From a virus, in the UHGV virus genome UHGV-0125682: 64,000 nt of DNA. One strand, given 5' to 3'. The notes beneath the pieces are model-generated. The model saw only the letters and a program-made list of their open reading frames with translations, had not been told where the DNA came from and did not search any database. Both the position numbers and the translations under genes were made by a program. Positions 14,493 through 57,614 of this stretch are shown here, piece after piece. Within the stretch, counting starts at the first letter, position 1. Each line of letters opens with the position of its first letter.

Positions 14493-14510
14493 AAGTTAAA
14501 TTTCTAACAT
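14493..14510 (-). promoter_or_regulatory. Operator-like motif (AAGTTAAATTTCTAACAT)
   Basis: Instance of recurring 18-bp motif AAATTAGTTTTCTAACAT. Confidence 0.4.
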
Positions 14511-16058: not shown

Positions 16059-16283
16059 ATGGTTAATGCCAATCCTTGCTCACGCCCAGAATTCATCTGG
16101 CGTTTCCACTCCCTGCAAAAACACTGCGATCACTTCGCAATTGCCGCAACCGAAAAAGAAGCCCGTTCTCTGATCCCTGATCAGTATGGTGTTCTTACTG
16201 GTCGTTTCTCTACTTCCCCACAACCAAACACTAATCCCTGGTATCGCAATATTACCAATCCCGGAATTGCGGAGGCACACTGA
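16059..16283 (+). CDS. Small protein paralogous to 56458-56673 (Icd-like position upstream of antirepressor)
   Basis: 74 aa; shared motif EFIWRF.S.QKH......AATE.EARS with the second copy; stop overlaps next start. Confidence 0.45.
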   Translation: MVNANPCSRPEFIWRFHSLQKHCDHFAIAATEKEARSLIPDQYGVLTGRFSTSPQPNTNPWYRNITNPGIAEAH

Positions 16284-16990
16284 TGGAAATCTGCATTCTT
16301 GAAAAGCCATCAATGACCAGCATTGAGATCGCGGAGCTGGTGGGAAGTCGTCACTCTGATGTTAAACGCAGCATCGAAAGACTTGTTGCTAAAGGAGTTA
16401 TCCAACATACGCCATTGGCTACAGTTGAGAATAATCAATCACTTAGCCCTAATAAATACACAAAAGCCTATTTCTTCGAAGGCGAGCAAGGCAAGCGCGA
16501 TAGTATTGTCGTCGTCGCGCAGCTCTCTCCCGAATTCACCGCCCGGCTGGTGGACCGCTGGCGCGAACTGGAAGAACAAGTACGCCAGCCGTTGACCGAA
16601 ATAGAGATGATCGCCGCAATGGCTGCAAATGCAGTTCAGCAGCAAAAGCGGCTTCATGTTGTTGAGTCAAAGGTTAGTCAGGTGGTAGAAACCGTCGAGC
16701 AAATCAAGAAGGGCAACATGCCAGATGGTTACATTGGCTACCGCCAGCTGGCTGCGAAATGTGGACTGACCGAAGCCAAATGCCGCAACCTGGTTAATGC
16801 TTACCGGATTCCCACCGATACACATGAGTTTTTAACTCCAGAGGGGGTATTGTCGCGTCGTTCCATCGTGGCCTTATCTCCCTTCATGAATGCTTTTAAC
16901 CGGATGATGTCGGAGGCTGAACACCGAGGAAAACGCTGGTATCACCCCAAAATGGGGCAATTCCAGGTGATCGGTTGGGGAGGTGAGTGA
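16283..16990 (+). CDS. Rha-family phage regulatory protein / antirepressor (Ant-like), lacking C-terminal domain
   Basis: MTSIEIAELVG.RH..VKR... Rha-type N-terminus; ~75% identical to 56673-57614 but stops early. Confidence 0.7.
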   Translation: MEICILEKPSMTSIEIAELVGSRHSDVKRSIERLVAKGVIQHTPLATVENNQSLSPNKYTKAYFFEGEQGKRDSIVVVAQLSPEFTARLVDRWRELEEQVRQPLTEIEMIAAMAANAVQQQKRLHVVESKVSQVVETVEQIKKGNMPDGYIGYRQLAAKCGLTEAKCRNLVNAYRIPTDTHEFLTPEGVLSRRSIVALSPFMNAFNRMMSEAEHRGKRWYHPKMGQFQVIGWGGE

Positions 16991-17187
16991 TGGACATCAT
17001 GCAGGCGGTAAAAAAAATCAGGGAAGGACAGGCTGAAGTGTGCCGCCGTAAAGCATGGAGTGTTGGTGTATGGGCCTGGCCTGATAATTACTCTACTACC
17101 GGATGGTTTTGTATTAATGGACTCCAGATCCGGGAAGTTGATTTATCGACGGCTGATATAGTCGGTAATGATTGGATCGTGACTTGA
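16987..17187 (+). CDS. Separate ORF matching the C-terminal domain of the intact antirepressor paralogue
   Basis: 66 aa ...CRRKAW.VGVWAWP... matches C-terminus of 56673-57614; different frame from 16283-16990. Confidence 0.4.
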   Translation: MMDIMQAVKKIREGQAEVCRRKAWSVGVWAWPDNYSTTGWFCINGLQIREVDLSTADIVGNDWIVT

Positions 17188-26071: not shown

Positions 26072-26272
26072 TTGCGGTTACTTAACGTGGCAGAACTTAT
26101 CCCTGCAGGAACTAATGCTATCGCTCGTCGTCGCTCATGGCAGCAGGCTCTATGTATTGAGATCTCGAAACGTATCAATGGAAGTTTTGAAGCTCGCAAT
26201 ATTGTTACTGGCGATAAGGTTCACATAACCCCGGAAAGTGCAAGCGCTGATGATTGGGAGTTTGTACATTGA
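26072..26272 (+). CDS. Small DUF2829-like protein
   Basis: 66 aa, TTG start with RBS GGAGAAA; motifs ARRRSW and C-terminal ADDWEFV shared with C-terminus of 31646-32221. Confidence 0.4.
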   Translation: MRLLNVAELIPAGTNAIARRRSWQQALCIEISKRINGSFEARNIVTGDKVHITPESASADDWEFVH

Positions 26273-27890: not shown

Positions 27891-27892
27891 TG

Positions 27893-27909
27893 TGTTAGAA
27901 ATCTAAAAT
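27893..27909 (+). promoter_or_regulatory. Operator-like motif (TGTTAGAAATCTAAAAT)
   Basis: Recurring motif at start of ORF-poor island. Confidence 0.4.
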
Positions 27910-28048
27910 CACAATTCGAATGTATTGATTGTGAAGGTAACTTAACATAGAATTTTCCTTGCTGGTGGGCGGTACCCACGTTTCGCTTGCTGGGCTTGAT
28001 AGTCACTTATTGGTTATTGTTCGCCCACCAGCATTTAACAAATTAAAG

Positions 28049-28640: not shown

Positions 28641-28664
28641 GCCCATCTTCGGGTGGGCTTTTTT
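28641..28664 (+). terminator. Rho-independent terminator inside non-coding island
   Basis: GCCCATC-TTCG-GGTGGGC followed by TTTTTT. Confidence 0.6.
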
Positions 28665-28850
28665 AGGGTTTTCGTCATGGTTAGCGACTTTGCGGCGGTT
28701 TATAAACTGACCATTAAAGTAAATGCAAACGATGATCTGATGATGGTAGCGGCCTAAGAAGCCAGACGCCACGGGGTATGAGTCGTCCCCCGTCAAAAAA
28801 TCGACCGCAGAGTGTCCCCGTCTGTGTATTAGGGAACGGGGAGGCATAAC

Positions 28851-31192: not shown

Positions 31193-31645
31193 TATTTGGT
31201 TGTAACACGGCGTATGGCACATGCGTCGTTAGCGGTCTGGTGACGTTAAAGGGGTTACCTTTTCCCCAAGCTCAGGCAACAAACCAGGTAGCCGGAATGT
31301 GCAAGCCCCGTACATAGCGTCGGACCGAGGACTCACCACCCTGGCGATTCGGTGTGACAGCCGGAAGAGTACGGCGCACAACAGGAAAAGGCGTTTAATT
31401 AACGCGAGCGCCGTTTCCGTTGTGGTAATTGCGGCTATGCGCTCGTGACGAAGCCATTTTCATTCACTACGTTCTGATAAGTGACGTCGCCAGGAGTGGC
31501 TAACCTGGCAGGTGGAGGCACCACCGCCACAACTCCTTTCAATTCATCATATAGCCGCTCAGGCTGTACCCCTTAATTAATACGAAGTTTCGACATCTCT
31601 ATCGGTTTAACCGAGGGATGGTCGCGCGTGTAAAAAGGAGACGTT

Positions 31646-32221
31646 ATGTTAACGGCGAACGATAACGCGTATGCAGAAGCAGATCTCATATTGAGTGACT
31701 TCATCGGTCAGCGGGAACGCTGGACACAAAAGCGAGAGGAACTTTATGCCTCGTTAGTTCGCAAAGGTGTCAACATTGAAACCGCTCAAAGCGGCGATAT
31801 GACGGTAGTCAGTGTTGGATTACATGGTGTGAGCGTGTCCGCAGCCAATCATGAGCCATACGTAGCGTTATCAGAGTCGATGGCAAGGCTAATTAAGTTT
31901 CTGAAGCAAACAGAAGCCAATAATGTTTTCATCGCCAAAAAGAACATCAATTTTTCTGCCGCCGTGTTCTGGATGATGAAGGGGCTTGACGCCCGCCGGG
32001 CATCATGGCCTAAAGGGAGCTATATGTCGATGTTCCGTGGCAGTATAGGCAGCAAAGAAAAGCTCGTCGAATTCCTGCCGGAAGAAGCATTCGATATTGT
32101 GGAAGGGTGCGATGTGATGATTATGCCTCGGCTGGTAATGATGAATGGAGACTTACAGGCACAGACAGACTGGTTCGCCACTGGCGTGGATATTATCGCG
32201 ACTGACTGGGAGGCATTCTGA
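31646..32221 (+). CDS. Protein with C-terminal DUF2829-like domain
   Basis: 191 aa; RBS AAAAGGAGA; C-terminal ...RRASWPKGSYM...NGDLQAQTDWFATGVDIIATDWEAF paralogous to 26072-26272. Confidence 0.5.
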   Translation: MLTANDNAYAEADLILSDFIGQRERWTQKREELYASLVRKGVNIETAQSGDMTVVSVGLHGVSVSAANHEPYVALSESMARLIKFLKQTEANNVFIAKKNINFSAAVFWMMKGLDARRASWPKGSYMSMFRGSIGSKEKLVEFLPEEAFDIVEGCDVMIMPRLVMMNGDLQAQTDWFATGVDIIATDWEAF

Positions 32222-32613
32222 TGTACGAGACCACAAAATTAAGCATTCACGAAGTATCCAATGTGGAGTGGAATATCGTCACCTGTAAGATTGTATCGTG
32301 TAATGCTGCGCGTACTGATGCAGGCCATAAGAGCACGATAACAGGCTACATGGTAATGGCTTATAGGGGATTGAGAGTTCGCTTTATCTGGAAAGCTCGG
32401 CAATTGACACCATTCAGAGAGCCGTCAATGCCATTAGAGGTAGAACAGGATTATTTAAGCCTGCCGGAAATAGACGGTGCAACGCTGGTGGATTCTGATG
32501 GTCGTAAGGCTGATTTTGAAGTCAGCTTAAAGGTGGCGCAGGCCGTAATTAATAACTCACGTGGTAAGTGGATCGCTAAGGTAAAACACGGCGTTCGCTT
32601 ATCTCGCTGGTAG
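32221..32613 (+). CDS. Hypothetical protein
   Basis: 130 aa; start overlaps upstream stop. Confidence 0.5.
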   Translation: MYETTKLSIHEVSNVEWNIVTCKIVSCNAARTDAGHKSTITGYMVMAYRGLRVRFIWKARQLTPFREPSMPLEVEQDYLSLPEIDGATLVDSDGRKADFEVSLKVAQAVINNSRGKWIAKVKHGVRLSRW

Positions 32614-32645
32614 TGTTAGATGAATGGAATTAATTTTCTAATATA
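32613..32645. promoter_or_regulatory. Paired operator-like motifs in inverted orientation
   Basis: TGTTAGA...TAATTTTCTAATA upstream of 32722 gene. Confidence 0.4.
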
Positions 32646-56457: not shown

Positions 56458-56673
56458 ATGGCTACTATCCCTACCCCAACTCATTCTGAATTTATCTGGC
56501 GTTTCTATTCCTGCCAAAAACACCTGTATATCTGCGTCATGGCTGCTACCGAAGCAGAAGCTCGTTCATACCTTCCTGAAGAACCCTGCATTTTTGCCGC
56601 ACGCTTCACTCTTGATGCGATGGAGATCCTAAATTACTGGAATCTGCCAATGAACTGCGTGGAGGTGCACTGA
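56458..56673 (+). CDS. Small protein paralogous to 16059-16283 (Icd-like position)
   Basis: 71 aa; RBS AAAGGAGG; stop overlaps next start. Confidence 0.45.
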   Translation: MATIPTPTHSEFIWRFYSCQKHLYICVMAATEAEARSYLPEEPCIFAARFTLDAMEILNYWNLPMNCVEVH

Positions 56674-57614
56674 TGAATCTGTCCATCTCTCAAAAAGCGA
56701 CAATGACCAGTATTGAGATCGCGGAACTGGTAGGTAAGCGTCATGATAATGTGAAGCGTACCATTGAAGTATTAACTAAAGGTGGTGTCATTCAATTTCC
56801 TCAAATTGAGGAAATTGAAAATAAACAATCAGTTGGCCCTCGTCGATTTTCCAAGGCTTACATATTTGAAGGCGAACAAGGAAAACGAGACAGCATCATT
56901 GTCGTCGCGCAGCTCTCTCCGGAATTCACCGCCCGGCTGGTGGACCGCTGGCGCGAACTGGAGAATGCCCGGGTACAGTTAAAATCAAAAGCCGAAATTC
57001 TGGCTGAAATGGCGCAAATGCATCTTGAGCATGAACGCCGGATCAACGCCGTAAATGCCCAGGTAGCCGAGGTATCAGCACAAGTATCGATGGTCGCTGA
57101 AACACTCGAGCAAATAAAGAAAGGCAATATTCCGGAAGGCTACATTGGCTACCGCCAGCTGGCGGCGAAATGTGGCCTGACTGAAGCCAAATGTCGCAAC
57201 CTGGTTAACGCTTTCCGGATTCCCACCGATACGCATGAGTTTTTAACTCCAGATGGTTTGCTTGCGCGACGCTCCATTGTGGCCCTGGTCCCCTTCCGGA
57301 AAGCCTTTAAGCAGGTGATGTCGGAGGCAGAACCACGCAATAAACGCTGGTATCATCCAAAGATGGGGATGTTTCAGGCAATCCACCATCCTGTGCCTGA
57401 AAGCCCAAAGGATAATCTGTCACTACATACCGTCAGAGAGAAGATCAGGACTGGATACGCAACAGTGTGTCGTCGTTCTTCCTGGCCTGAAGGTATATGG
57501 GTGTGGCCCGAAGGTGGATCACGAAAGCACTGTCGCACCATCCGTGACGGGAAAATCCATGCTATTGATTTAGCTCCAGAGGATGTTATTGCTATGGACT
57601 GGATTGTTAGTTAA
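56673..57614 (+). CDS. Rha-family phage regulatory protein / antirepressor (Ant-like), full length
   Basis: 313 aa; MTSIEIAELVGKRHDNVKR...; C-terminal domain present. Confidence 0.7.
   Translation: MNLSISQKATMTSIEIAELVGKRHDNVKRTIEVLTKGGVIQFPQIEEIENKQSVGPRRFSKAYIFEGEQGKRDSIIVVAQLSPEFTARLVDRWRELENARVQLKSKAEILAEMAQMHLEHERRINAVNAQVAEVSAQVSMVAETLEQIKKGNIPEGYIGYRQLAAKCGLTEAKCRNLVNAFRIPTDTHEFLTPDGLLARRSIVALVPFRKAFKQVMSEAEPRNKRWYHPKMGMFQAIHHPVPESPKDNLSLHTVREKIRTGYATVCRRSSWPEGIWVWPEGGSRKHCRTIRDGKIHAIDLAPEDVIAMDWIVS

Follow-up and report, generated by a model that had tools for sequence, protein, structure and literature searches.

The 64,000-nucleotide stretch of DNA analysed here (the window) carries at 31646-32221 a genuine gene for a 191-aa protein in which a Tad2-like domain is joined to an additional, conserved domain at the N-terminus, and it is from these features that we infer its function. 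On balance, the protein seems to belong, as a two-domain form, to the Tad2 sponge proteins of phages, and it would be best read as an early-expressed sponge for a nucleotide signal, with altered specificity. Coordinates of the gene, of its domains and of the surrounding features are collected in Table 1.

Table 1. Features in and around the 191-aa gene and related modules elsewhere in the window.
Feature	Position	Strand	Remarks
CDS, 191 aa, 21.4 kDa, pI 5.0	31646..32221	+	ATG start; ortholog of phage D6 orf6
Shine-Dalgarno sequence AGGAG	31636..31640	+	5 nt 5' of the ATG; sequence read directly
N-terminal domain, residues ~8-95	31667..31930	+	Helix, then alpha-beta-beta-beta-alpha; pI 5.3; no Pfam family
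Tad2-like domain PF11195 (formerly DUF2829), residues 102-190	31949..32215	+
Pocket codons W121; W176; D182	32006-32008; 32171-32173; 32189-32191	+
tRNA, CAT anticodon	31117..31192	+	Met according to ARAGORN; P1 homolog trnI annotated as tRNA-Ile2 (CAT, ileX-like)
130-aa ORF, phrog_7004	32221..32613	+	ATG shares one base with the TGA of the 191-aa gene
Operator-like 18-mer	27891..27908	-	Beside the promoter-like site; positional analogue of P1 Oban/Pban
Sigma70-like promoter	27925-27953	+	Adjoins the 18-mer at 27891-27908
Operator-like 18-mer	32628..32645	+	Lies 77 bp 5' of lpa; corresponds in position to P1 Olpa
66-aa ORF, D6 orf11, phrog_7206	26072..26272	+	Paralog according to the earlier note; possible remote DUF2829-like mini-domain
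66-aa mini DUF2829-like ORF, phrog_7385	16987..17187	+	GTGA overlap with the stop of the 235-aa Rha-like gene
Mini DUF2829-like module, ~60 aa	57432..57614	+	C-terminal end of a 313-aa Rha/Ant-like protein (56673-57614)

The 2.2 kb of the window around the 191-aa gene displayed 89 % DNA identity with Escherichia phage D6, a P1-related phage-plasmid, and the gene belongs to a phage-plasmid of the D6/P1 type from E. coli. P1, P7, SJ46 and RCS47 matched this region only across the CAT tRNA and ~190 bp beyond it. The protein was 91 % identical in amino acids to D6 orf6 (YP_009914683.1, H7U15_gp006), from which it showed no substantive difference: length and neighbours are the same (tci and tRNA on the 5' side; orf5, lpa, pacA and pacB on the 3' side). 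D6 orf6 is annotated as a 'hypothetical protein', and some copies are mislabelled as a type I toxin-antitoxin (TA) toxin. Copies of the gene were found on about 120-125 plasmids of ~75-98 kb, almost all of them non-mobilizable, hosted by Escherichia, Salmonella, Shigella, Pantoea and Enterobacter. As indicated by dN/dS ratios against D6 (0.08 for the whole gene, 0.07 for residues 1-95 and 0.10 for residues 96-191), both halves of the protein are under strong purifying selection.

The order of genes in the window was pmgS-like, tRNA-Arg, tRNA-Thr, a small membrane ORF, an SPFH/Band-7 protein, tRNA(CAT), the 191-aa gene, the 130-aa ORF, lpa and pacA. The amino-acid identity of the CAT tRNA was ambiguous because the ARAGORN assignment and the P1 annotation disagree. 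The 130-aa ORF had no match in Pfam or NCBIfam. It was found only in D6 and close relatives and was missing from the ~42 %-identity loci and from Pantoea, and was therefore rejected as an obligate partner of the Tad2-like gene.

The C-terminal part of the protein matched PF11195 (E 2.8e-9, profile positions 2-72 of 73) with 37.8 bits, above the curated gathering threshold of 25 bits, and this was the sole Pfam family found. When an in-house Tad2 HMM built from 31 diverse Tad2 domains was scored against the 558 ORF segments of the window, the 191-aa protein obtained 108.6 bits, far above every other ORF. Its best sequence matches in the PDB were SptTad2 and SPO1 Tad2, and a profile that included it recovered all solved Tad2 proteins with E values of 1e-16 to 1e-29. 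In PHROGs, the whole protein corresponded to phrog_7362 (function not assigned). No DNA-binding or enzymatic signature was found in Pfam or NCBIfam.

These matches bear out a DUF2829-like domain at the C-terminus, as the earlier note on this DNA had proposed from its letters. The same note had spoken of a fusion with an unrelated N-terminal domain, now recovered as a separately modelled domain, and of a position directly after the tRNA island, which agrees with the 453 bp separating the gene from tRNA(CAT); its suggestion of anti-defence activity was judged a sensible guess from sequence. The lengths that it had given, ~70 aa for the C-terminal domain and 120 aa for the extension, were in error and became ~90 and ~100 aa. 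The C-terminal domain opens with helix alpha1 (NFSAAVFWMMKG, ~residue 102), ~15-20 residues before RRASW, which limits the N-terminal extension to ~100 aa.

The full-length homologs retrieved by word-indexed searches extended to 42 % identity, had lengths of 191-204 aa and without exception carried a precomputed PF11195 match. When 1.84 billion representatives were searched exhaustively with a profile, 28 matches were obtained at E <= 1e-3; ~10 of these clusters (191-268 aa) aligned over both domains, and the remainder were short stand-alone DUF2829 proteins. A profile search of genome contigs with the family alignment found no relatives. In the 15-sequence alignment, divergent members were 34-47 % identical to the window protein in the N-terminal domain and 48-64 % in the C-terminal domain. 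The surface of the N-terminal domain evolves fast while its core is kept, and its pattern was still seen in members at ~20 % identity. Judging from these alignments, the two-domain architecture is retained to ~20-28 % identity among phage-plasmids related to P1 in Escherichia, Salmonella, Shigella and Pantoea.

The genomic setting was conserved as well. On contigs with 42 %-identity homologs, the gene lay between the pmgS/tRNA region and lpa-pacA-pacB-c1, and a 194-aa two-domain homolog (28 % identity) was encoded directly 5' of lpa on plasmid pEuc3 of Pantoea eucalypti. From E. coli D6 through Pantoea pEuc3, the two-domain gene was always found just upstream of lpa-pacAB. The fusion is not confined to this element; it is a conserved syntenic gene across a whole clade of P1-related phage-plasmids. 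One C-domain-only member of the same clade was encountered in Raoultella ornithinolytica (P0025, 112 aa, 53 % identity to the window C-domain). It starts at what is the last helix of the N-terminal domain; the gene may have been called too short, or the protein may be truncated naturally. No publication on the two-domain architecture or on D6 orf6 was found in a search that did not extend to the 18 homologs tested in a 2025 preprint.

Pocket positions were numbered from HMMER alignments to solved Tad2 proteins. Ligand contacts in SPO1 Tad2 are W25, N26, W73, S76, T78 and D79 (10.1101/2023.05.01.538930). HgmTad2 binds gcADPR through W21/N22 and S90/T92/D93 and has a separate cyclic-dinucleotide site formed by R31, S47, F70 and N85 (PMC10680739). 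In the 191-aa protein, the places of the gcADPR contacts were taken by W121, P122, W176, T179, V181 and D182. W121, W176 and D182 aligned with W25, W73 and D79 of SPO1 and with W21, W87 and D93 of Hgm, so that both pocket tryptophans of Tad2 and its pocket aspartate were present, and these three residues were invariant in the 15-sequence close family.

The polar contacts were not retained. SPO1, Hgm, Spt and Mod (four out of four) displayed GWNGK and W-x-x-S-x-[TS]-D, in contrast to SWP-KG and T-G-V-D in the 191-aa protein. P122 thus stands for an Asn and V181 for a Thr/Ser, both of which form hydrogen bonds with the ligand in SPO1 Tad2 and HgmTad2. Across the close family, P122 was nearly invariant and V181 invariant. 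Even the pocket aspartate was lost in some members of the wider two-domain family. Going by the alignments, the pocket keeps its hydrophobic core and differs in its polar lining.

SPO1 Tad2 (Gp34.65; PDB 8SME/8WJE), the founding member of the anti-Thoeris sponges, also carries PF11195, is ~16 % identical and shares the equivalents of W25/W73/D79, helix alpha1 and a C-terminal D-x-x-A-x-D-W motif. The 191-aa protein differs from it by N26 to P122, T78 to V181, the deletion of one Gly after the W-N motif, a beta2-beta5 segment that is ~6 residues longer and the extra ~100-aa N-terminal domain. SptTad2 and HgmTad2 (AcrIIA7; PDB 8WJD, 8KBI) are dual sponges for gcADPR and cyclic dinucleotides. SptTad2 was the best sequence match among solved structures (E 0.08-0.09) and aligned nearly without gaps through the insertion region; in the same alignment, the beta2-beta5 insertion comprised 27 residues in the 191-aa protein, 31 in Spt and 21 in SPO1. 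None of the four cyclic-dinucleotide contacts of HgmTad2 was conserved (R31, S47, F70 and N85 became F130, F143, I159 and T174), and the beta2-beta5 insertion, which is long in cyclic-dinucleotide-binding Tad2 proteins and carries these contacts there, was of intermediate length.

Since polar contacts were replaced and cyclic-dinucleotide contacts were missing, the mode of ligand binding probably differs in some respect from that of 3'cADPR in SPO1 Tad2. Tad2 homologs are very plastic in their ligands, which include 3'cADPR, His-ADPR, N7-cADPR, cyclic dinucleotides and cUMP/cCMP (PMC12393519). Together with this variety, the altered polar lining leads to the prediction of a sponge that probably has a non-canonical specificity. 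The P122 and V181 substitutions, the Gly deletion and the loss of the aspartate in some wider-family members were nevertheless counted against a sponge.

Structure prediction, a check that had been recommended in the earlier note, succeeded for one of the two domains. With the 15-sequence alignment as input, AlphaFold2 modelled the N-terminal domain confidently (block pLDDT 75-94 over residues 11-90), predicting helices at 11-20, 31-39 and 71-90 and strands at 43-49, 52-59 and 62-68. The C-terminal domain, for which the fold of Tad2 sponges would predict alpha1 and then a five-stranded antiparallel sheet, was poorly modelled from this shallow alignment (pLDDT 34-79). The shallowness may be a cause of this, as may the fact that the characterised Tad2 proteins are obligate oligomers.

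The N-terminal domain resembled the dsRBD and ribosome hibernation factor (HPF/pY) folds at the fold level only, with 8-17 % identity. It differed from both by its acidic pI, its additional N-terminal helix and the lack of a KKxAK or GPxH motif, and it is not a member of either family. The basic RNA-contact motifs of a dsRBD, KKxAK at alpha2 and the GPxH loop, were both missing, and conservation across the wider family concerned almost only structural residues. RNA binding is unlikely for an acidic domain in which these motifs are absent; most likely, the domain contributes to assembly or binds a partner.

In P1, the CAT tRNA is followed by ban; in the window, the Tad2-like gene fills this slot, the distal position of the tRNA-tci operon. 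Homology with P1 stopped ~186-190 bp beyond the CAT tRNA, where ban gives way to the Tad2-like cassette. The non-coding segment that follows the tRNA (31193-31378) was ~90 % conserved with P1, P7, SJ46 and RCS47, and 112 bp of it were also conserved with Stx2c-converting phages. It had no match in Rfam, and its predicted fold was no better than that of shuffled sequences (z -0.76). Between 27.8 and 32.8 kb, Rfam recognised three tRNAs only, all else being sub-threshold noise, and neither a promoter nor inverted repeats were found in the 453-bp spacer upstream of the 191-aa gene.

The consensus of P1 C1 operators (ATTGCTCTAATAAATTT, up to 3 mismatches allowed) had no match in the window. A de novo search uncovered the 18-mer AATTARTTTTCTAACAYA in 11 copies, against 0.25 expected, at 14494, 15698, 26642, 27891, 32628, 37062, 38472, 49761/49777, 54988 and 55641, including one overlapping divergent pair. 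From its distribution, this 18-mer is probably the operator of a D6-type C1 repressor. In P1, Oban/Pban heads the dicF-like region and the tRNA-tci-tRNA-ban operon, and an 18-mer and a sigma70-like promoter occupied the corresponding place in the window. By its position, the 18-mer in front of lpa would mark the next transcription unit, downstream of the 191-aa gene.

With the ban slot occupied and an operator-like site upstream, the Tad2-like gene is probably de-repressed early; the arrangement suggests the early, repressor-controlled expression that would be expected of a counter-defence gene. Against early timing count the negative promoter scan of the 453-bp spacer and a strong terminator-like hairpin, GCCCATCTTCGGGTGGGC followed by a T run, which intervenes at 28641-28658 between the putative promoter and the 191-aa gene. 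The hairpin lies upstream of the tRNAs, where P1 has its annotated dicF-like region, and it is overlapped by a sub-threshold Rfam match to tmRNA_permuted (28652-28757; 25 bits, the threshold being 47).

As a sponge, the protein would act as follows. De-repressed early behind the operator-like site in the slot of P1 ban, the gene would deliver a protein whose C-terminal domain oligomerises by contacts of helix alpha1 and of the beta-sheet, as in solved Tad2 proteins. The tryptophans of neighbouring protomers (W121 and W176) together with D182 would enclose an immune signal derived from nucleotides and withhold it from the effector of a Thoeris-, CBASS- or Pycsar-type defence, so that the phage-plasmid could replicate. 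The dsRBD-like N-terminal domain would most likely serve assembly or the binding of a partner.

Related modules were encountered elsewhere in the window. According to the earlier note, the C-terminal domain was paralogous to the 66-aa product of 26072-26272, a claim that did not withstand direct comparison. BLASTP aligned the two over 46 residues with E 0.007, no Pfam match was obtained for the 66-aa protein at E <= 10, and the hhalign probability was 7 % (P 0.005) between the two families and 6-8 % (local) or 11 % (global, P 7e-4) against broad Tad2 profiles. With the in-house Tad2 HMM, the ORF scored 5.5 bits, a value equalled by 12 out of 5000 shuffles, and ranked fourth of the 558 ORF segments. 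As pairwise, profile-sequence and profile-profile tests were all non-significant, the very result that the note had named as speaking against itself, 'paralogous' describes at best a plausible remote relationship. The top Foldseek match in BFVD was a 66-aa DUF2829 protein (E 0.015, TM 0.36). The one link of moderate weight was indirect, hhalign relating the 26072 family to the mini-domain family of the 16987 type with a probability of 58-63 % (P about 1e-4). From such comparisons, the 26072 protein may just as well be as not be a very divergent mini DUF2829-like protein.

Two other modules, missed by the earlier note, outscored 26072-26272 with the same HMM. The ORF at 16987-17187 matched PF11195 from end to end at a sub-threshold E of 0.034, and it and the C-terminal module at 57432-57614 are clear paralogs of each other (phrog_7385). 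Their mini-domain family was related to Tad2 domains with an hhalign probability of 93 % (E 2.5e-7), in an alignment with a deletion of 31 columns by which the mini-domains lose the insertion as well as the second pocket Trp (Val in its place). Mini modules (phrog_7385 and the phrog_63 C-terminus) share with the 191-aa protein the motifs G-x-x-v-x-R-R-x-x-W and D-x-x-A/G-x-D-W-x-V with the same spacing logic; they differ by lacking ~31 residues and by occurring as stand-alone 66-aa proteins or on Rha/Ant regulators. A Rha/Ant-type regulator was present twice in the window, intact at 56673-57614 and split at 16283-17187 into the 235-aa Rha-like gene and the 66-aa ORF, and the 'anti-repressor Ant' of phrog_63 likewise ends with a mini DUF2829-like module.

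The occurrence of DUF2829-like modules on Rha/Ant-type regulators of the same element implies that the domain may in some cases do something other than sponging. These modules and the altered pocket suggest that the serious rival is a role outside sponging, the 191-aa protein being a protein- or small-molecule-binding regulatory module in phage-plasmid development. It could act, for instance, in replication or in the lysis-lysogeny switch, its N-terminal domain contacting a phage or host partner. We regard this as possible, if somewhat unlikely. It would suit the changes in the canonical ligand contacts, the fast-evolving surface and kept core of the N-terminal domain, the replacement of ban and the tight synteny with the late activator lpa over a large evolutionary distance. 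It is at variance with the invariance of the Trp-Trp-Asp pocket core in the close family and with the lack of DNA-binding or enzymatic signatures in the searches above, and all DUF2829 proteins characterised so far are nucleotide sponges (PMC12393519, PMC10680739).

A further reading, which we consider distinctly improbable, is that the dsRBD-like N-terminal domain and the remodelled pocket define a distinct Tad2 branch of P1-related phage-plasmids. Such a branch would either sequester an immune signal outside those known to be sponged or combine sponging with a second activity of the N-terminal domain, candidates for which would be a second pocket, effector binding or higher-order assembly. 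If this were true, then in conjunction with the Rha/Ant modules DUF2829 would be a general reader of nucleotide signals and not only a sponge.

AcrIIA7 (HgmTad2), initially reported as a DUF2829 protein with activity against Cas9, is a member of the same Pfam family, which raises the question of an anti-CRISPR of this type. The Enterobacterales hosts are not known to carry type II-A CRISPR, which was counted against it, and AcrIIA7 was too dissimilar to be detected with the own profile of the 191-aa family. The anti-Cas9 activity of HgmTad2 and its homologs was, moreover, not reproducible (PMC10680739), and this very improbable reading was rejected. Least tenable, and effectively refuted, is a type I toxin, the label 'MW1434 family type I TA system toxin' borne by homologs in several RefSeq plasmid records (e.g. 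NZ_CP056699.1, NZ_CP045723.1) and by P0008: it conflicts with the Pfam Tad2-like assignment, no NCBIfam model matched, Rfam revealed no antisense RNA family, the protein is soluble, acidic and 191 aa long (GRAVY -0.05) in contrast to short hydrophobic type I toxins, and the name originates in a purely computational compilation of S. aureus candidates, of which MW1434 was not assayed (PMC6266405).

Recognition of the 191-aa protein as Tad2-like would correct this misleading label, which is spreading through RefSeq; should the protein be an ordinary anti-Thoeris sponge, better annotation would be the only gain. P1/D6-type phage-plasmids occur widely among E. coli and Salmonella of clinical and animal origin, residing for long periods in cells that carry signalling defence systems. 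A two-domain Tad2 protein would be a natural test case for the way in which accessory domains and pocket substitutions retune the specificity of sponges. A conserved, syntenic gene of the Tad2 type with an additional domain and an altered pocket would extend the sponge repertoire to phage-plasmids.
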